Shown in pieces: positions 24,558-39,795 of a DNA stretch of 51,781 nt. Source of the DNA: Armatimonadota bacterium (GTDB lineage Bacteria; Armatimonadota; UBA10988). The DNA is taken from positions 1-51,781 of the forward strand of contig JACRKZ010000140.1 in the NCBI GenBank assembly GCA_016235455.1. The letters run 5' to 3'. Under the pieces are notes generated by a model. That model had not been told where the DNA came from, ran no database searches, and was given only the letters and a program-made list of their open reading frames with translations. Made by a program: the position numbers and the translations under genes. The number at the start of each line of letters is the position of its first letter. Within the stretch, counting starts at the first letter, position 1.

Positions 24558-27500
24558 CTACATCTCCGCCCCACGCCGCAGACACACCTGGATGCTCGTC
24601 TCCATGTCCTGGTTGATAAGCTTGGGCAGTTCCGCGCGCTCTTCGGCGTTGCTCAGCGCCACCAGTGCCACCGCGGCCGCGTAGCGCGTGTCGATCGCGT
24701 TGAGGTCGCTGGTGATCACCGCGCGCAGCGGGGCGATGGCTCGCCGGTCGCCGAGCCGGCCCAGCGCCCAGGCGCACTCGGCCCGCCAGCAGGGGGTGAG
24801 GTCGTTGTGCAGGAAAAGCACGCCCGGCCCCAGCGGATCCGGCCGGCCATGTGCGGCTTCGGGCTCGCTGGCCAGGCCAGCCAGCAGGCTGTCCGCGGCG
24901 CTCGGGTCGCCCATCTCGCCCAGCGCGCGCGCCAGGAAGAAGCTGACCCAATGGCGCGCGGGCAGTTCGTCGACGACCGGGATGCCGCGGTCGAAGACGC
25001 GCTTGATGGCGCACGGCGCTTGCCGCCAGCGGTCCAGCGCGGCGCACAGGCGCGGCACATAGCGCTTGTCGCGGCACAGGGCCGACAGCGTCTGCGCGGC
25101 CCGGATGTCACCGCCCGGTGAGCCGGCCCAGGCGCCATGCTTGGTGCTGATGGCCGCGGCCAGGGCCGGATCGCTCTTGGCCGCCTGGTCACCCAGCAGC
25201 GCCAGGCATGTCTCGATCACGGCCTCGGCCTGAACCGAGCGGCGGATGACGCGGCCGGCCAGTGCTTCGTAATCGTCGGTGCCATAGGCCAGCAGGCGGT
25301 CGGGGTCGGTGGGGATGGAGCGCAGGATGGCCGGCACCACCGGCCCGGCCTGCGTCGATCCCAGGCGGTCGAGGGCTTCGAGGATGAGGTAGTGCGGCGG
25401 CGAGGCATGGCAGGCCATGAGCGCGGGGTGGTCGCCGTACCACTCCGACAGCCGCCAGTGCTCGCGCAGGTTGCCAAAGGCAGCGATCAGTGCGGCCTCG
25501 GCCGGCTTGGTGCCGATGCTGCCCAATGCCTCGGCGCAAGCCTCGGCCAGGAACAGGTTGCCTGGGCCGGGATCGCCATACTTGCCCAACGCCTCGGCCA
25601 GCAGCGGTACCAGGCTCTCGTCACCCAGTCGGCCCATGGCCCGGGTCACGGCCTGCAAGGTGCGCGGGTTCTCAGCCGAGGCGCTGTTGAACTGCGCCGC
25701 GTCGGACACGTGGCCCTGGGCGCGCCAGGTCGGGTAGGGGTTCACGTCGCGCTGCGCGGTGAACCACGCCTTGAGCGCCGGCACGGCCGAGGCATCGCCG
25801 CTGTGCGTCAGTGTGACGGCGGCGCGCCGCACCTGGTCGCGGGTGCCCGAGGCGAGGCGGTCGAGCAGTTCGGCCTGGCGGGCCGGCCACGCTTCGGGCG
25901 AGCACGCGGCGCGCCAAGCGGCAATCTGCGCCGAGCGCTTGTCCGCCGATGCAAAGGCGTCGAACTCGCCGCGCCAGCCAGTCAGGTTCTCCACCGCCAC
26001 CGCGGCGCCTTGGGCGACGATGGGGTCGGCGTCGGCCAGCGCATCGAGCAGCGCCGGCACGCTGGCCCGGTTGCCACACGAGGCCAGCGCCATGGCCGCC
26101 GCCAGCCGCAGCTCACGGTCGCCGCTCTTGAGGCAGCTGGCCAGCGCCGGCGCGGCCTTGGGGTCGCGGAACATGGCCAGGCGCTGGATAGCGCCGATAC
26201 GCTGGTCGTCCGGCCCTTCGGCGGCGACGTTGGCCAGCGCGGCCACCTCGGCTGCGCCGGTGTCGCCGGGGAGGCCATCGTGGCGATTGAGACCGGCGAT
26301 CTCGCGGAAGCGGTCGAACTGCAACTCCATCATGCCGGTGACGGCGGGGTTGTTGCCGCGGAACTGGAAGGGCCGGCGGTCGGGGACCAACCGCACGGGC
26401 TTGACCTTGGCCGCCAACGGCGCACCGGCCAGCGGCTCTCCGCCGCGTGGCGCGACCTGGCGCGGCTGATGGCAGCCCACGCAGCCGCGCTTCTCGCCCG
26501 GCCGCACGAAGATCCACGACATCTCGTTGAGCTCCGAGCGGCCTTCGGCATCGACGGCCTGCAGCGCGATGGCGGTGTCGGCGGGCACCTCGATGGCGAA
26601 GGAGCCGTCGGCGGCCAGCGGCACGGTGCCCAGCTCGGTGACCGTGTTGCCCGCGTGGACGATGTAGGAGTGCGACGAGCGCAGCGTCTGGCCACCACCG
26701 GCCAGCACGCGAATGGCCCGCACATGCGACCAGCCGGCCGCCGTGTTCTTGGTCAGCCGCGCGTTCTGGCAGACCAGGATGCCGGTGGATGACGGGCTGT
26801 CCTCCTTGGCGCGGTCGACACCCGACGCGATGACCGGCGGCCGGCGGCGGGCGAGCAGGCTGACCGGCGAGTGCAGGCCGGTCTCGAAATTCTTGAGCAG
26901 GATGACAGCCCCCGGCTGGGCCTGACTGGGATCGACCAACGCCAGCGTCCGGTAGGTGCGTTCGTGGGCCCCGCCGCCCTTGACCATCTCCGACACGGCC
27001 AACCGCTTGGGCAGGCTGACCAGCAGGCGCCCGTCAGGCATGGCGGCGACGTCGCCGGCCTCCACGTTGAGGTGGCGTATATCGCCTGGCGTGCCGCCGG
27101 GCCGGCCGATGGCCACGCCGGAGCCCGTCAGGAAGGCCACGCGGCCGTCGGGCAGGGGGGCTGGGCTGCCGACGTTGTAGGCGCGCAACCGACCGCCATA
27201 GTCAGGCCCGAGATCGAGTCCGAACTCGGTGTAGCCATGCGTGCCGTCGGGATGGACCGCGTGCAGCAGTGTCTCCACCTTGCCGCGGTCGAAGAAGTTG
27301 TCCGAGCGGATGAAGATGATGCGGCCGTCGGCCATGACCTCGGGCTCGTTGTCGAAGATGAACGTGCGTGTGAGCGGGCGGATGTCGCTGCCATCGGCCT
27401 GCATGGTGTACAACGCGCGCGACGGCGGGCTGTGGTACTCCTCGAACGTGCCGGCGCGCGTCGAGGTGAACACGATGCGGCCGTCGGGCAGTTCGGCGGG

Positions 27501-28529
27501 GTCGATGTCGTGGTGCGTGCCGCGCGTGAGTTGGACCGGTGGGGTGCCGTCGAGCGCCAGCCGGTAGATGTGGTAGAAAGCCTCGCCGGCGGGCACGTAG
27601 CTGATCAGTAGTGCCTTGCCGTCGAACGTCGGGCTGGGCGAGCCCACCGCGCCGGCGCCGGCGTCGAACAGGATCGTCGGCTTGCTGTCCGGCCCGTCGG
27701 AGCGCAGCCGATAGAGCTTGTGCCCGACCTTCATCGGTGCGGGCAGGTCGTGCTCGGGGAAGGCGCGGCTGTCGCGCGGGTTGAAGATGGTCACGCTGAG
27801 GCTGTCGTAGCTGTTGCCGGTCCCGCCGGTGGGTCGGTACAGGCTGCAGTCGTCACCCACAAAGGCCATGTCGGCCGGCCACACGAAGTCGGCCGGCGGC
27901 GCGGCGTCGGGCCCGGCATCACGCTGGCCCACGGGTAGCTTGGCCGCGCCGGCGGCCACGCCGCCCCACGGCGCACTGCCCCACGGCGCGATGACTGTGG
28001 CCTGGGCCCAGGCCTGGTCGTTGAACTCGGGCTGTTGCCAGTTGTTCTCTTCGGTTCGGGTGGCCTTCCAGGCGGGCCCGGTGGCGAGCTCGAAGTGCTG
28101 GCCATCCTCCAGGTCGACGACCATCTTGAACAGCAATCCGGCCGGCCCCGGTGCGGTGTTGGCGGCCTCGATGGCGACGGTATTGTGGCCGGCGCTGAGC
28201 AGCGATGCCACGTCGAAGCGCTTGGGTCGGTTCCAGGCGTCGGGGTTGGGCTCGCCCTCACCGGCGAAGCGGCCGTTGATGAAGAAGGTGTAGAGGTTGT
28301 CGCAGGTGACGATGACCTCGGCCGACTTGATGCGCGCCTTCTCCGAGATGGCCACTTGCGCCCGCAAGTAGCAGGTGCCGCGCGGCATGTCCATCAGCGC
28401 CACGCCGGGGTCTGGCGCGTGCCACACCCAGTTGGCGCCCTGGAAGGTGGCTTGGGCATTGGCGGGTAGGACGCCAATGGACAGGACGAGCGCGCCAACG
28501 GCGGCCAGGCCGTACAGTCTGGTTGTCAT
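24558..28529 (-). CDS. Large secreted multidomain protein: lectin/rhamnosidase-N-like domain, TolB-like propeller, hydrazine-synthase-alpha-like middle domain with CxxCH, HEAT repeats
   Basis: Signal peptide; ANWVW...TCDNLY...GHNTVAIEA...GPAGLL...WK; DIDPAELPDGRIVFTSTR; LGTVPLAADGSFAIEVPADTAIALQAVDAEG...RPGEKRGCVGCH; PBS-lyase HEAT repeats. Confidence 0.8.
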   Translation of the reverse strand: MTTRLYGLAAVGALVLSIGVLPANAQATFQGANWVWHAPDPGVALMDMPRGTCYLRAQVAISEKARIKSAEVIVTCDNLYTFFINGRFAGEGEPNPDAWNRPKRFDVASLLSAGHNTVAIEAANTAPGPAGLLFKMVVDLEDGQHFELATGPAWKATRTEENNWQQPEFNDQAWAQATVIAPWGSAPWGGVAAGAAKLPVGQRDAGPDAAPPADFVWPADMAFVGDDCSLYRPTGGTGNSYDSLSVTIFNPRDSRAFPEHDLPAPMKVGHKLYRLRSDGPDSKPTILFDAGAGAVGSPSPTFDGKALLISYVPAGEAFYHIYRLALDGTPPVQLTRGTHHDIDPAELPDGRIVFTSTRAGTFEEYHSPPSRALYTMQADGSDIRPLTRTFIFDNEPEVMADGRIIFIRSDNFFDRGKVETLLHAVHPDGTHGYTEFGLDLGPDYGGRLRAYNVGSPAPLPDGRVAFLTGSGVAIGRPGGTPGDIRHLNVEAGDVAAMPDGRLLVSLPKRLAVSEMVKGGGAHERTYRTLALVDPSQAQPGAVILLKNFETGLHSPVSLLARRRPPVIASGVDRAKEDSPSSTGILVCQNARLTKNTAAGWSHVRAIRVLAGGGQTLRSSHSYIVHAGNTVTELGTVPLAADGSFAIEVPADTAIALQAVDAEGRSELNEMSWIFVRPGEKRGCVGCHQPRQVAPRGGEPLAGAPLAAKVKPVRLVPDRRPFQFRGNNPAVTGMMELQFDRFREIAGLNRHDGLPGDTGAAEVAALANVAAEGPDDQRIGAIQRLAMFRDPKAAPALASCLKSGDRELRLAAAMALASCGNRASVPALLDALADADPIVAQGAAVAVENLTGWRGEFDAFASADKRSAQIAAWRAACSPEAWPARQAELLDRLASGTRDQVRRAAVTLTHSGDASAVPALKAWFTAQRDVNPYPTWRAQGHVSDAAQFNSASAENPRTLQAVTRAMGRLGDESLVPLLAEALGKYGDPGPGNLFLAEACAEALGSIGTKPAEAALIAAFGNLREHWRLSEWYGDHPALMACHASPPHYLILEALDRLGSTQAGPVVPAILRSIPTDPDRLLAYGTDDYEALAGRVIRRSVQAEAVIETCLALLGDQAAKSDPALAAAISTKHGAWAGSPGGDIRAAQTLSALCRDKRYVPRLCAALDRWRQAPCAIKRVFDRGIPVVDELPARHWVSFFLARALGEMGDPSAADSLLAGLASEPEAAHGRPDPLGPGVLFLHNDLTPCWRAECAWALGRLGDRRAIAPLRAVITSDLNAIDTRYAAAVALVALSNAEERAELPKLINQDMETSIQVCLRRGAEM

Positions 28530-28613: not shown

Positions 28614-29756
28614 CTACACCCACCGCGCATAGGCGCCATAGGTGCGCGCCGTCTCCACCATGGCGTGCAGGTTCGCGTCCGGGGTGTCACGGCCACACTG
28701 ATCGCCGGTCGACAGCACGAACCCGCCGCCCTTGGCCGCCGCGTCGATGGCGTTGCGGCTGGCGCGCGCCACCTCGTCCGCGCTGCCGCGCAACATGGTG
28801 GTCGTGGTGTGCAGGTTGCCCTTGAGCACGATCTGGTCGCCGTACAGTCGCTTGAGCTCGGCCAGGTCGCAGTCGCCCATGGGCGGGATCTCCAGCGGGT
28901 CGATGATGGTCAGCTTGGTTTCCAGTGCTGCCATCTTGACCAACTCGGTCTCCGGTCCGCAGGAGTGCACATGGGTCGGGATGCCCAGATCCCAGGCCAG
29001 TTCCGTGGCGCGCTTCAGCACGGGCAGCGCCAGCTCGCGGACGATAGCCGGAGTCTGCCAGATGAGCGTGCCCGAGCTGCCGCAGAAGAGCAGGTCTGGC
29101 CGGCGCTTCATGGCCGCGATGTGCTCCATGCGCCGTTCGACGCGAGCCAGCATCCGCGCCGAGTTCTCTCTGAACGGCCGGGGATCATCGTAGTAGGCGT
29201 AGATCTGCTCTTCGTTGCTGAGATGGGTGGTGTAGCACCCGCTGGAGATGCCGACGATGCCTTGGTCGCCCATCTCTTCGACGACCAGGTCGTAGAGATC
29301 AAGACCCGTCGGCCACTGCTTCACGCCGGTCACCGGCTCCCACGCGCTGGGCACGGCGGGCAGACCGATGACCGCGGGATCGATGCCGCCCGCCGGCGGG
29401 GCGCCGCGCCAGTAGACGGTGACCCGGGGATGCCAGTCGCCGGTCGTCGTGTTGAAGAGCTGGGTCACCGGCGCGTCGTCGGTGTGGCGCGCCACGATGC
29501 GCTCCTCCCACGGCGACGGCGCCTGCTCCTCAAACTCGACGCCGATCGAGTAGACCTCGATCCCGGCATCGAGGTCGAAGTGCTTGGCGGCGTCGATGTG
29601 CGCCTTCCACAACGGCGGGTTCTGGTAGAGGTAGATCTCCCAGAACGGCTTGCCCGTCAGTCGGCAGGGCACCATGTTCGAGATATCCGGGTCAACCGGC
29701 ACACAGTCGGGCAGTTCACCGTGCAATACCGCCAGCAGCCGCTCGCGCGAGGTCAT
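28614..29756 (-). CDS. Uroporphyrinogen decarboxylase / MtaA-CmuA superfamily protein
   Basis: MTSRERLLAVLHGELPDCVPV, HVHSCG, LKGNL, GGFVLSTGDQ...TPDANL. Confidence 0.85.
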   Translation of the reverse strand: MTSRERLLAVLHGELPDCVPVDPDISNMVPCRLTGKPFWEIYLYQNPPLWKAHIDAAKHFDLDAGIEVYSIGVEFEEQAPSPWEERIVARHTDDAPVTQLFNTTTGDWHPRVTVYWRGAPPAGGIDPAVIGLPAVPSAWEPVTGVKQWPTGLDLYDLVVEEMGDQGIVGISSGCYTTHLSNEEQIYAYYDDPRPFRENSARMLARVERRMEHIAAMKRRPDLLFCGSSGTLIWQTPAIVRELALPVLKRATELAWDLGIPTHVHSCGPETELVKMAALETKLTIIDPLEIPPMGDCDLAELKRLYGDQIVLKGNLHTTTTMLRGSADEVARASRNAIDAAAKGGGFVLSTGDQCGRDTPDANLHAMVETARTYGAYARWV

Positions 29757-35204: not shown

Positions 35205-36482
35205 TCAGTGGTACCCGTCGCCTTGGGCTTCGAGGATGGCCACGATCGGGTCGAACATCGTCTCGATGGGCGCCAGTTCCCGCTCCAGCCGGCATTCGGG
35301 CTGGTAGGTGAAGGGGTCGTTGCCGTCGGCCAGGCCGCGGCCGAGCTCCACCAGGTAGAGGAATGTGCGCAGCGGCACATCAGGTGGCACGCCGTGGTCG
35401 ACCGTGGGGATGTAGCGCCCGTAGTGCCAGGCCTGGCGGTAGCGGCGGGTGGTCTCGGCACGCGCCTGCGGCTTGTCGAAGCGCAACTCACGCTTGTCGA
35501 TGCCGCCGTCGAGCAGCAGACGGGGGAAGGCTTCCAGGTAGTCGCCGGGGTCGTTGTCCGAGGCGATCTCTACGGGTGAGATGCCGTCGATGACGCCCGC
35601 CTCGCCGTGAAAGACGGGCACGATCTGGCCGATGTGGCCGTCGCTGTCCATCATCACCGCCTGCACGCCATGGCCCTTGAAGAACTCATACAGCCGGCGG
35701 TAGCGCGGCACCATGAACTCGCGCATCATGGCCGGCGAGAGCATCGCGGCATGCTTGTAGGCCATGTCCTCGTTGAGGATGACCTGGTCGATGCGCACGC
35801 GCGACAGCGGTTCGTCGAGCAGGTCGATGATGAAGTTGGTCCAGTGCTCCATCATGGCGTGTACGCAGGCGGGTTCCAGGCTGGCCAGCAGGCTCAGGCC
35901 CTCGAACCCGGCCCAATCGCGCGCAGTCCAGTAGAGGCCCGGCACGGTCAGCGTCGTCGGCGCGTCACCAAGGTTCAGGCGCGCGGCGTGGGCCGGGTCG
36001 TCATAGGCGGTCCCGGCGTGATGCACGCGGTAGCCGTCGGGGTTGTAGGTCGGCCGCTCGTTCTCGCCGGGTTGCGGCACGAGCCGGCCCGGGGTCCGCG
36101 CGTCGTAGCGGAAGCGCATGGCCTCGAAGTCGGCCAGCGACTTGACGGGGAACTCCAGATACTGCCGCGTGGCGAACCCCGCCGTCGGCTGCCGGATGGC
36201 GTCGACGCGCCGCACGCCCCATTCGTCGCACCACTCGCGCTGGTTGCCCTCTTCGCGGATGATGCGGACATCGAAGAACGGGATCGGCTGGCAGTTGAGC
36301 TTGCCGAAGCCGACCCACGGGTCGCCGCCCAGCCACGACCAGAAGCGACCATCGAGCTCGGGCGTCAGGCCTTGGCGTCGCCAAGCCGCCATGGTGCTCT
36401 GGCGGGGCCCGCCAAAGGCGTACGGCAGGCGATCCAGTCGCTCACCTTGCACATAGGCGCGGTAGCGCTCACGGGGCGTCAT
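35205..36482 (-). CDS. Uroporphyrinogen decarboxylase / MtaA superfamily protein (second copy)
   Basis: MTPRERY, DEWGV, NEDMAYK..MLSP, MDSDG, GGIDKR, YIPTVDHGVPPDV. Start could be 36494. Confidence 0.85.
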   Translation of the reverse strand: MTPRERYRAYVQGERLDRLPYAFGGPRQSTMAAWRRQGLTPELDGRFWSWLGGDPWVGFGKLNCQPIPFFDVRIIREEGNQREWCDEWGVRRVDAIRQPTAGFATRQYLEFPVKSLADFEAMRFRYDARTPGRLVPQPGENERPTYNPDGYRVHHAGTAYDDPAHAARLNLGDAPTTLTVPGLYWTARDWAGFEGLSLLASLEPACVHAMMEHWTNFIIDLLDEPLSRVRIDQVILNEDMAYKHAAMLSPAMMREFMVPRYRRLYEFFKGHGVQAVMMDSDGHIGQIVPVFHGEAGVIDGISPVEIASDNDPGDYLEAFPRLLLDGGIDKRELRFDKPQARAETTRRYRQAWHYGRYIPTVDHGVPPDVPLRTFLYLVELGRGLADGNDPFTYQPECRLERELAPIETMFDPIVAILEAQGDGYH

Positions 36483-37593
36483 GGTGGACTCCATTGCCGC
36501 GATGGCGCCAGCAGACCACGCCGCGGCGGTTGATGTCGCAGGGCAGCACGCGCACGCCCTGCAGGCGGTCGAGCGCGCGGACCACCCAGCCCACGGAGTC
36601 GGGCTCGGCCAGCAGCGTGATGGTCCCGCCCATGCCGGCGCCGTTGACGTTGGCCGCGCGCACACCCAGGCCCCGAGCCATGGCCACTACGTCGTGCATG
36701 ATGGGCAGGATCATCTGGGGATGCAGCAGGTGCTGTGCCTGCCAGGTGAGGTCGAGCGCGGCGCAGAAAGCCTCGAAGTCGCCGGACGTCAACGCGGCCT
36801 GCACACCGGCCTCGGCGCCGGCCAGCAGGTCGAAGGCGCGTACACTGTCGGGATGCCGTTCCTCCAGCCGCTCGAACACGTTCATGTGAGCGGCGTGGCT
36901 GCTGTGCGGCGTACCGAAGTCGACGACGATCATGCCGGCATCGATGGTCTCCAGCAGCAGAGGATTGACATCCACCGGCCGGATCTCGATGGCCTCGCGA
37001 TCGCCTTCGAAGCGTGTGTGGTAGTTGGCGATGCCGCCGTGCACCGCCGCAGACTGGTCCTGGAACCCGCAGCTCATGCCCAGCACGTAGGTCTCCGGCA
37101 GGCGCGCGGCATAGATCAGGTCGGTATCGCTCAGGGTGCGGCCGGCGGCCTCGGCCAGCACGCGGACCAGCGTCACCTGCAGCGCGGCCGAGGTGCCAAG
37201 GCCGGTCGCCGCGGGGATGCCCTTGGCGGTGCAGCGCAACTCGAGGCCCGCCGGCGGCTGCGCCGCGTGGAGCAGCGCACGGATCATCGCGTGCGGCTCA
37301 TCGGGCCGCGGCGGCATGGCCAGTTCGCGCGGGGTGAGCCGCAGTTGCAGGTCGACATCGGGCGCCAGCAACGTGATGTGGTCGCGGTCGTCGCCCAGGC
37401 GGAGCGAGGTGGAGGCACTGGCGGTCAGGGCCACGTTGGTGCAATCGCCGCCGCCGCCGCGCGGCACATCGCGCCAGCCGCTGAGCATCCAGCGCATGGG
37501 CGCCCGCGCCATGACCGTCTCGCCGGGCTCCAGGAACAGGCCGTCGCCGAACAACGGGTACAGCGCCGCAAAACGCTCACTCGAAGACATCAT
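36469..37593 (-). CDS. GHMP family sugar kinase (HddA / heptose-7-phosphate kinase-like)
   Basis: ARAPMR, PAATGLGTSAA, GFQDQ..AVHGG, NGAGMGG. Confidence 0.82.
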   Translation of the reverse strand: MMSSSERFAALYPLFGDGLFLEPGETVMARAPMRWMLSGWRDVPRGGGGDCTNVALTASASTSLRLGDDRDHITLLAPDVDLQLRLTPRELAMPPRPDEPHAMIRALLHAAQPPAGLELRCTAKGIPAATGLGTSAALQVTLVRVLAEAAGRTLSDTDLIYAARLPETYVLGMSCGFQDQSAAVHGGIANYHTRFEGDREAIEIRPVDVNPLLLETIDAGMIVVDFGTPHSSHAAHMNVFERLEERHPDSVRAFDLLAGAEAGVQAALTSGDFEAFCAALDLTWQAQHLLHPQMILPIMHDVVAMARGLGVRAANVNGAGMGGTITLLAEPDSVGWVVRALDRLQGVRVLPCDINRRGVVCWRHRGNGVHHDAP

Positions 37594-37646
37594 CATGATG
37601 AGCGGCGCATTGGCCGGCTTGGCGGGCTATCCTTCGGACGGCCCCC

Positions 37647-37680
37647 AAAAACGCCAAGGCCACCGATGTGCCGGTGGCCT
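37647..37680 (-). terminator. Intrinsic terminator
   Basis: AGGCCACCG-6nt-CGGTGGCCT perfect 9-bp stem followed by TGGCGTTTTT on the minus strand. Confidence 0.75.
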
Positions 37681-37814
37681 CAGTGCATAGTCAGCACAGT
37701 CATGAGTTGCGCCGCCTATGATGGTCTGTTCATCGAGGTCTGTCTGCCGCTGGTGCCTTGTCCTTGCGTGTCTTGTGTCTCACACACTGGGATGACACCG
37801 CTGGACTGATGGTA
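37647..37814 (-). ncRNA. Candidate structured small RNA or cis-regulatory leader
   Basis: Sigma28-like promoter upstream, 5'/3' closing stem, six RGACM motifs and a terminator; lower GC than the flanking CDSs. Confidence 0.45.
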
Positions 37815-37820
37815 CATAGA

Positions 37821-37847
37821 GCATCGGCCAGCGGAAACGGCTATTTC
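37821..37847 (-). promoter_or_regulatory. Putative sigma28-like promoter
   Basis: GAAA(37847-44)-N15-GCCGATGC(37828-21). Confidence 0.45.
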
Positions 37848-37872
37848 GCCCAGGGGTAACGCGTATGCAACA

Positions 37873-39168
37873 TCAGGCCGTCGATTTGCAGATCGCGAAG
37901 GCTTCGCGCGCCGCGGCGAGGGTGGTGGCCACCGCTTGCGCGTCGTGCGCCAGCCCCGGGAACCAGGCCTCGAACTGCGATGGCGGCAGGTAGACGCCGC
38001 GCTCGAGCATGGCCCAGAAGAACGCGGCGAACCGCGCCGTGCTGGCCTGCTTGGCCGTGGCATAATCGGTCACCGGCTGGTCGGTGAAGAAGGCGGTGAA
38101 CATGCTGCCCGCGCGGTTGACGACCAGCGGCACACCGGCGGCCGCCGCGGCATCGGCCAGCCCGTCGGCCAGACGGGCCGAGGTGGCTTCGAGCTGCTCA
38201 TACACGCCTGGCTGGGCCAGCGCGCGCAGGGTCGTCAGGCCCGCGCTGACGGCCACGGGGTTGCCGGCCAAGGTGCCAGCCTGATAGATCGGGCCGGCCG
38301 GCGCGATCTGGCGCATGAGGTCGGCGCGCCCACCATAGGCCGCCAGCGGATAGCCGCCGCCGATGACCTTGCCGAGCATGGTCAGATCAGGCTTGATGGC
38401 ATCCCGGCCCTGCACACCGCCGCGCGCCACGCGGAACCCGGTCATCACCTCGTCGAAGATGAGCAGCACGCCGTAGCGGTCGCACAGCAGGCGCAGGCCA
38501 GCCAGCCAGCCACGGCCCAGGTCGACCACACCCATGTTGCCAGCCACCGGCTCGACGATGATGGCGCCGATCTTCTCGCCGTGGCCAGCCAGCACCGTCT
38601 CCACCGCGTCCAGGTCGCCATACGGCAGCGACCAGGTCAGCGCGGCCAGTTCGGGCGGCACACCAGGCGAATCGGGCAGGCCAAGCGTGGCCACGCCAGA
38701 CCCGGCGGCGACCAGCAGGCTATCGGCGTGGCCGTGGTAGCAGCCGTCGAACTTGATCAGCCCCATGCGGCCCGTGGCGCCGCGCGCCAGGCGCACGACG
38801 GCCATGCCGGCCTCGGTGCCCGAGCAGACCAGGCGCACGACCTCGATGCTCGGTACCGCCTCGACGATGGCCTCGGCCAGCTCCACCTCCAGCGGCGATG
38901 GCGCGCCGAAGCTCGACCCGGCGGCCACGGCGGTCTGCGCGCTGGCCGTCACGTCGGGGTGGGCATGGCCCAGGATCAGCGGGCCCCAGCTCATCACGTA
39001 GTCGACATAGCGGTTGCCGTCGACATCGGTGAGATAGGCTCCGCTGCCCGAGGCGAAGAAGCGGGGTTGGCCGCCGACGCCGCGGAAGGCGCGCACAGGG
39101 CTGTTCACACCGCCGGGCAGGCGTTGGCCGGCGCGCACCCAGAGGGCGTCGGAGCGCGAGGTATCCAT
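37873..39168 (-). CDS. hemL: Glutamate-1-semialdehyde 2,1-aminomutase
   Basis: [58 protein letters not shown]. Confidence 0.97.
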
Positions 39169-39186
39169 GCATTGACTCCGCGTGGG

Positions 39187-39795
39187 CTAGACCAGCGTAA
39201 AGAGCAGCCAGGCGAACGTGGCGATCGTGGCCAGGCCCACAAGGATGCCGCCGCCGCAGCCCGACTTCTTGGCCGTGGCCTTGGCGCCACCGCTCTGCTG
39301 TTGCTTGAGTTCGCTCAGCGCGCCGGCCAGCGGGTCACTCGAGGCCTGCTTCTTGCCGGGCAGGTCCATCTCCAGGTTGAGGATGTCGATCGAGCCCAGC
39401 CCGCCGGGCATCACCGCGGAACTGCCGTCCGTGGTGACCTGGGCGGCAGCGGCCTTGGTCTGCTCGAACGCCGCCTGCGCCTTGGCGTGGTTGGGGTTGT
39501 TGAGCAGCGCCACGTGGAACATGCTGTTGGCTTCGCGTAGGCGGCCGAGCTTGACCATGGCCACGCCGGCGTAGAACGGGTACTCCGCCGAGGCGCCGTC
39601 GAGGTCGCAGGCCTTCTCGAATTCGCGCACGGCGTCGGCCCACTTGTCGCGCTTGCCCCAGCACATGCCCAGGTACATGTGCAGGTCGGCCCGCGTGGGC
39701 TCCTCCTCGACTGCCTGCCGCAGCAGCGGCATGGCTTCCTCGTTCTGGCCGGACCGGTACAGGGCGATGCCCTTCTCGGCGGGTGACTGCGCCAT
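39187..39795 (-). CDS. TPR protein with C-terminal membrane anchor
   Basis: Three TPRs (HMYLGMCW...EFEKAC; FYAGVAMVKLG) and a hydrophobic C-terminus after KKSGCGG; AAGGAG RBS. Confidence 0.75.
   Translation of the reverse strand: MAQSPAEKGIALYRSGQNEEAMPLLRQAVEEEPTRADLHMYLGMCWGKRDKWADAVREFEKACDLDGASAEYPFYAGVAMVKLGRLREANSMFHVALLNNPNHAKAQAAFEQTKAAAAQVTTDGSSAVMPGGLGSIDILNLEMDLPGKKQASSDPLAGALSELKQQQSGGAKATAKKSGCGGGILVGLATIATFAWLLFTLV

Follow-up and report, generated by a model that had tools for sequence, protein, structure and literature searches.

The 276-bp gap between hemL and a sugar kinase gene in an Armatimonadota genome harbours a real, conserved and narrowly distributed non-coding element that is centred on a transcription terminator. 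The gap lies in a window of 51,781 nucleotides, by which we mean the whole stretch of DNA that was analysed; this window is contig C118 of a 6.5-Mb genome (G000; 70% G+C, 93% complete). In the minus-strand gene run that extends from 45404 down to about 24558, positions 37597-37872 separate hemL (upstream) from the kinase gene (downstream). HemL (glutamate-1-semialdehyde 2,1-aminomutase; 37873-39168, minus strand) was identified by Pfam Aminotran_3 (1.2e-68) and by TIGR00713 (579.4 bits, cut-off 527.3). The first gene 3' of the gap (36469-37596, minus strand) encodes a GHMP-family sugar kinase (GHMP_kinases_N, 5.4e-13) for which no NCBIfam equivalog was found at cut-off, and its start position could be fixed because the N-terminus is conserved. 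It is followed by a URO-D-like gene, a KDG-kinase-like PfkB gene and a KDPG aldolase gene.

Several features of this gene run are worth recording in their own right. The window contains two URO-D-like genes (28614-29756 and 35205-36665) with weak Pfam matches, which stand amid genes for sugar kinases, an aldolase and PIG-L proteins. The one at 35205-36665 matched no NCBIfam family. With 197 nt of its longest ORF shared with the kinase gene, this gene probably has a later start. At 24558-28529, a protein of 1323 amino acids combines HEAT repeats, the middle domain of hydrazine synthase alpha (PF18582, 3.5e-16) and PD40 repeats.

Conservation and anatomy of the element

A blastn search with the gap against 41 relatives returned nothing above chance (best non-self match, E-value of 0.018 over 29 nt), a result that taken alone gave a false impression of no conservation. 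Using a protein-guided scan of metagenome contigs, we found the element between hemL and the GHMP kinase gene in two contigs, L038 and L036, and its 3' part in a third, L035. The kinase is 80% identical to that of the window in L038, where the gap to the upstream hemL measures 233 nt, and 66% identical in L036, where hemL is likewise upstream and the gap measures 305 nt; both gaps can be aligned to the window in their 3' part. The L035 contig (kinase 75% identical) has just 110 nt of upstream sequence, which keeps the last part of the element. A further contig, from run X9, is about 85% alike over 37300-37756 and 37939-38194, and 183 letters that are less than 80% alike stand in place of 37757-37938. 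The element is thus known from five lineages, three of them with full copies (G000, L038 and L036) and two with partial ones (L035 and the X9 contig), and its conserved portion begins near 37762.

The covariance model R1 matched 37597-37762 on the minus strand, the 3' ~165 nt of the gap, with scores of 169.5 bits for the window, 169.4 for L038 and 161.9 for L036. On L035, an independent sequence cut at its 5' end, it scored 32.1 bits (E-value of 5e-6). The remaining ~110 nt, at 37763-37872 on the minus strand, form a non-conserved spacer behind hemL: measured as a fraction of the longer sequence, pairwise identity to L038 and L036 was 0.32-0.50 in this 5' part, compared with 0.62-0.69 in the 3' part. 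Shortly beyond the U-tract, contigs from runs X2 and X8 show strain-level differences at window positions 37638 (A>G) and 37642 (C>G), with letters given for the plus strand; the remainder of the element is identical in them. In L038, hemL matched in two frames between 270 and 1573 (residues 1-43 and 46-406), which reflects either a frameshift or an assembly error.

Read 5' to 3' on the minus strand, the element consists of an A/C-rich stretch ending in ACAGAC, the block CCUCGAUGAACAGACnnUCAUAG, a hairpin that we labelled P2, the terminator, its U-tract, and the motifs AGG and G(G/A)CCAA(U/C). In the alignment of G000, L038 and L036, 21 of the 23 positions of the block are invariant, and a second copy of ACAGAC lies just upstream of it. 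This near-invariance of the core compares with an identity of merely 0.57-0.64 at fourfold-degenerate sites of the flanking genes. The invariant core, CCUCGAUGAACAGACCAUCAUAGG (37715-37738, minus strand), could form a weak hairpin, P1, with a predicted energy of -1.0 to -3.5 kcal/mol on its own. Because P1 has no sequence variation, covariation cannot probe it; it also overlaps P2 at CAUAG. The small CCU..AUGA/UCAU..AGG hairpin is weak as well (-3.5 kcal/mol).

P2 (37687-37719, minus strand) is built from AUAG and CUAU around an inner stem that changes sequence between orthologs. In a four-sequence alignment, two of its 11 pairs carry changes on both sides and 89.5% of cells are paired; its energy is -9.9 to -10.5 kcal/mol in three orthologs. 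Covariation is more extensive in the terminator, where both sides have changed in nine of 16 pairs and the four sequences have 96.9% of cells paired. In 500 shuffles, neither the pairing nor the covariation score ever came up to the values observed, with an alignment of four sequences that was fitted to the model and so favours structure. A possible further hairpin around CCAA, P4, had 78.6% of cells paired and a different register in L038, and we did not adopt it.

The terminator (37647-37683, minus strand) comprises a stem-loop at 37654-37683 and a U-tract at 37647-37651. Its stem, which the sequence-only reading had already picked out, was confirmed by a terminator scan and found to be conserved: it has a perfect 9-bp core, extends to 13 pairs when G-U pairs are included (eight of them G-C), closes on a 4-nt loop and is followed by CGUUUUUGGG, with a T5 tract. 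Terminator stems vary among orthologs with pairing always kept; their energies range from -23.7 kcal/mol, the value for the window copy, to -31.1 kcal/mol, and the U-tract is 3-5 U long. The U-tract follows the stem only on the minus strand, in the sense orientation of both genes.

In all three full orthologs, the core, P2 and terminator stand 50-65 nt before the kinase start. The interval holds the AGG and G(G/A)CCAA(U/C) motifs (37609-37633, minus strand), seen as invariant columns in four sequences; they are 17 nt apart, a spacing that is constant in all four, and they end 10-12 nt before the start codon. In G000, the GGCCAA motif falls within a 9-nt tandem duplication (37610-37628; plus-strand unit TTGGCCGGC, 2.1 copies) that yields two CCAA copies before the kinase start. 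GGCCAAY was considered as a general gene-start signal and showed no enrichment, occurring at about 2.8% of sites, like control motifs. The likeness of GGCGG to an ops/JUMPstart element was also dismissed (it agrees with the consensus at only five of 12 positions and had no Rfam match), as was an upstream ORF overlapping the start codon, which is present in only two of four sequences. No sigma70-type promoter-like site was found in 36400-39300, no conserved -10-like element in the ~50-65 nt from terminator to kinase start, and no Shine-Dalgarno sequence before the kinase start; many genes of the window show GGAG.

Distribution and loss

The element belongs to no curated RNA family. Rfam 15, 6S RNA included, gave no match at gathering score anywhere in the window, bearing out the earlier impression that no known family was involved. 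Within 37400-38100, the search returned three noise matches (E-values of 1.3-6.2; 12.7-15.7 bits against cut-offs of 35-88), and in L035, L036 and L038 there were no matches at E-values up to 1.

We next determined how widespread the element is. G000 was the sole genome matched by R1 among six family genomes, and again among 151 genomes of the phylum, with 18 candidates scored per genome. A second model, R2, covering the core and P2, found no second copy in 31 genomes (best match, E-value of 0.0146 per genome). Two exact-pattern scans of genome contigs, taking one genome per species, each gave zero matches. A 15-mer scan of viral contigs gave 56 loci, all of which scored 19.1 bits or less with R1 and were set aside as chance matches. 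The 16 runs listed as holders included no RNA runs. Within G000, near-matches to the core number 1, 6, 51 and 437 at up to 0, 1, 2 and 3 mismatches, and those inspected sit in coding-like DNA.

The genome of the same genus, G001, has no gap at this position: the TGA stop of hemL overlaps the GTG start of the kinase gene as GTGA, so the two genes are co-transcribed there. This junction looks like a clean deletion of the entire element. A kinase tree joins G000 with G001 (support 87/90) and places them beside L035 and L038, to the exclusion of L036. Since G001 is thereby sister to G000 within the element-bearing group, it most simply lost the element. The G001 kinase is longer by about eight N-terminal residues (contig C62; locus L029, 2610-2643). 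In the other four family genomes the element is absent, and hemL and the kinase gene are on separate contigs. There the kinase gene lies behind other sugar genes, for example those of a PfkB kinase or an epimerase, and hemL is closely trailed by another gene. Being missing from G001 and from these four genomes, the element is dispensable.

The sigma28-like site, the repeats and the small ORFs

The sequence-only reading had offered two options, of which one was a stand-alone RNA of ~165 nt, transcribed from a sigma28 (FliA) promoter at 37847-37821, closed by a long stem and titrating a protein through six RGACM motifs. The features described for the gap were all found at the coordinates given, though they differ in weight. 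The genome does encode flagellar genes, with fliD inside the window, and a FliA sigma factor (TIGR02479, 232.7 bits against a cut-off of 189.6). The proposed promoter, GAAA-N15-GCCGATGC, is present at 37821-37847 on the minus strand, and its GCCGAT -10 element and N15 spacing match those of real flagellin and FliS-like sites; against the sigma28 consensus TAAA-N15-GCCGATAA it scores 3/4 and 6/8. It is nevertheless a variant of chance frequency, and probably a chance match. The pattern [TG]AAA-N15-GCCGAT occurs 11 times genome-wide, and spacers of 12-18 give 3-15 occurrences, so that spacer 15 is not enriched over the others. All six TAAA-type sites are in DNA that looks non-coding, among them the sites upstream of the genes for flagellin and a FliS-like protein, whereas four of the five GAAA-type sites lie within coding sequence and the fifth is the site in the hemL/kinase gap. 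Base composition leads us to expect about one GAAA-type site by chance in all intergenic DNA. Canonical sites of the forms TAAA-N15-GCCGATAA and GCCGATGT stand 84 and 46 nt before the flagellin and FliS-like genes, on contigs C164 (about 12520, plus strand) and C174 (about 54782, reverse strand), and two of the six TAAA-type sites are followed by large ORFs (704 and 1290 amino acids) that are not flagellar. The site before fliD that had been cited as having the same geometry does not match N15-GCCGAT: the window reads GAAC..GCCGACAG at 1430-1475, with a spacer shorter than 15.

The site in the gap is not conserved either. It falls in the non-conserved part: it has no aligned counterpart in L038, CCGAT is missing from the L036 gap, and similarity to the X9 contig is below 80% there. 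A loose TATA-N15-TCCGATAG is found elsewhere in L038. The proposed closing stem can form, with a duplex energy of -14.3 kcal/mol that 1.4% of 1000 shuffles equal. It is absent from minimum-energy folds, however, and its 5' segment finds partners that are at least as good in other 18-nt windows of the gap (down to -15.6 kcal/mol). The 3' segment doubles as the 3' arm of P2, so that the stem competes with a hairpin that covaries.

The six RGACM motifs (37723-37780, minus strand) are all where they had been placed, and they form the sole cluster of at least six RGACM in 58 nt on both strands of the 6.5-Mb genome. Such a cluster arose in none of 5000 dinucleotide shuffles of the whole gap and in 0.02% of 5000 shuffles of its central 76 nt. 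Six copies in total were reached by 0.06-0.1% of these local shuffles, for a motif that was defined after the sequence was seen. What is conserved is smaller. RGACM counts are six in G000, three in L038 and two in L036, and the exact ACAGAC occurs twice in each, which in the window are the two 3' copies at 37738-37743 and 37724-37729. L036 contains five ACAG, a count matched by 0.1% of shuffles. Thus ACAGAC is conserved as a two-copy motif, and related motifs have multiplied independently in some lineages; this is the part of the repeat idea that survives. A partner for the repeats was not found either. PF02599, whose search controls E. coli, B. subtilis and T. maritima all matched, had no CsrA match in G000, and no Hfq gene was found in this 93%-complete genome, which leaves the analogy to CsrB without a partner. 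With its promoter at chance level, its closing stem in competition with P2 and two motif copies kept rather than six, we consider a sigma28-driven sponge very improbable.

A small protein, for example a leader peptide, was weighed as a further explanation and seems the most improbable of all. The candidates are a sense ORF of 33 amino acids that ends in MNRxS and a stop (37817-37716) and an antisense ORF that starts MxVCSSR. A 5-codon mini-ORF, AUG..UAG, is kept in all three orthologs, one robust indel of L036 measures 6 nt, and the antisense ORF is open in all three (25, 80+ and 42 amino acids). Against this, the sense ORF has 18 and 26 amino acids in the orthologs with differing starts, and the remainders cannot be aligned; the antisense ORF diverges fully after seven residues. 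GC3 is 0.35-0.61 in the sense ORF and about 0.6 in the antisense ORF, 0.35-0.62 overall, compared with about 0.89 for genes, and a Shine-Dalgarno sequence was not found. The five invariant codons are invariant at their third positions too, which indicates a constraint on nucleotides and not on protein. Coding-type conservation of the 33-residue ORF was thus tested with a negative result, and an RNA reading of the element survives.

A putative intercistronic attenuator

The other option of the sequence-only reading, a terminator-bearing element that precedes the GHMP kinase genes, fits the pattern of conservation. Our leading, though tentative, interpretation is that the element is a sense-strand intercistronic terminator or attenuator at which hemL transcripts end and which restricts read-through into the sugar-kinase genes. 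The terminator would end most transcripts that arrive through hemL, and the remaining fraction would read on into the GHMP kinase and URO-D-like genes, so that the kinase would be expressed by read-through. A factor that binds the invariant block might set this fraction. This interpretation is consistent with the location of the element between hemL and the kinase gene in L038 and L036, with the near-invariance of the core relative to fourfold sites and with the covarying terminator and P2. We favour it because no promoter-like element or Shine-Dalgarno sequence was found at the kinase gene and because G001 couples the kinase directly to hemL. A constitutive terminator together with an unrecognised kinase promoter would account for this anatomy too. 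It is also conceivable, though unlikely, that the invariant block and the two ACAGAC copies are the site for an RNA-binding factor or a small ligand that sets read-through, making the element an orphan class of attenuator. If so, the lineage-specific multiplication of motifs, with six RGACM in G000 and five ACAG in L036, would tune its sensitivity.

A switch between alternative structures is not apparent in the orthologs. Nascent-RNA folds differ between them and share no conserved antiterminator pairing. In eight tests of the terminator arms against downstream sequence, one gave a shuffle fraction of 0.026 and the other seven gave 0.17-0.98. Pairing of the core with the kinase start reaches -31.7 kcal/mol in G000 (equalled by 0.2% of shuffles), and was rejected as a shared feature at -15.2 kcal/mol in L038 and -19.9 in L036, no better than shuffles. 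In the window, 37580-37609 and 37708-37737 form a 30-nt inverted repeat that is 70% complementary and absent from L038 and L036. By this predicted pairing, the core and the 5' arm of P2 could mask the kinase start, AUGAUGAUG, in the RNA of G000.

Three other explanations were weighed. In the main rival, the terminator simply ends the hemL transcript, and the end of the hemL 3' UTR also yields a small RNA, processed or independently transcribed; the block and ACAGAC would be a trans-acting seed, and the motifs beyond the terminator would be part of a 5' UTR or promoter that serves the kinase separately. A spacer, an invariant block of ~23 nt, a hairpin and a terminator with a U-tail are the usual anatomy of such RNAs, and the conservation of the core, the covariation and the lack of a detectable antiterminator all fit. 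We nonetheless regard it as somewhat unlikely, given that Hfq was not found in G000, that neither the RNA nor the kinase gene has a conserved promoter, and that the inspected near-matches to the core in G000, which might have been a second copy or a target complement, lie in coding DNA. Alternatively, the signal could act at the DNA level, with the block, which includes the imperfect inverted repeat ATGA-N8-TCAT, serving as an operator and AGG-N17-CCAA as an unusual promoter of the kinase operon. Invariance of the block also at positions that would be unpaired, the 17-nt motif spacing shared by all four sequences, and sugar-catabolic neighbours of a kind often controlled by repressors speak for an operator. 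Its place ~30 nt upstream of a strong terminator would be an odd design, the inverted repeat is merely 4+3 bp, no regulator gene adjoins the gap and GGCCAAY is not a general start-region signal, which together make a DNA-level signal improbable. There is a similarly slim chance that this is an ordinary hemL terminator with no further function, its block being conserved for an unrelated or trivial reason. Such a view would accommodate the narrow distribution and the loss in G001 without an obvious replacement. It sits poorly with 21 of 23 invariant positions against a neutral identity of about 0.6, far beyond drift, and with the hemL genes of other family genomes, which a gene closely trails and which do without the element.

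Judged by analogy, the closest functional parallels of the element appear to be terminator-type leaders and internal operon attenuators. Among intercistronic attenuators and internal operon terminators, the one between rplL and rpoB in E. coli is an example. As in these systems, a terminator inside a co-directional array splits a housekeeping gene from downstream genes that lack a promoter, and the short U-tract is compatible with partial termination. The element differs in having a 23-nt invariant block and a covarying hairpin 5' of the terminator and in being confined to a few uncultured lineages. With terminator-type riboswitches and protein-dependent leaders (T-box, RAT/BglG, ANTAR) it shares a conserved sequence and a hairpin directly before a terminator, ahead of catabolic genes; unlike them, it has no Rfam match and no conserved antiterminator was found. 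ANTAR hairpins feature a hexaloop, whereas the hairpin loops of the element have 7-10 nt. In small RNAs derived from 3' UTRs, of the CpxQ, SroC and UhpU type, one likewise finds a variable spacer behind the stop codon, a conserved block resembling a seed, a hairpin and the same terminator as the parent mRNA. They differ with respect to Hfq, whose gene was not found in G000. CsrB/RsmZ sponges, whose many GGA motifs lie mostly in hairpin loops, also repeat a short motif in an RNA that ends at a terminator, but the motif here is RGACM/ACAGAC and not GGA, which occurs once between 37647 and 37847, upstream of the terminator. Two copies are conserved, and the gene for CsrA was not found.

The element is therefore an orphan: real, conserved and narrowly distributed. 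In the parts of the literature covered by our search, we found nothing relevant on it and no conserved regulatory RNA described for the phylum. For now, motif catalogues could usefully list it as a candidate, an orphan motif of five lineages that would come as no surprise to specialists. If it does meter read-through, it would show how a housekeeping gene, hemL, is uncoupled from a catabolic sugar-kinase unit within one array, and how a sister species re-coupled hemL and the kinase gene by a deletion down to the GTGA overlap. It would then also add a conserved regulatory RNA to a little-studied phylum.
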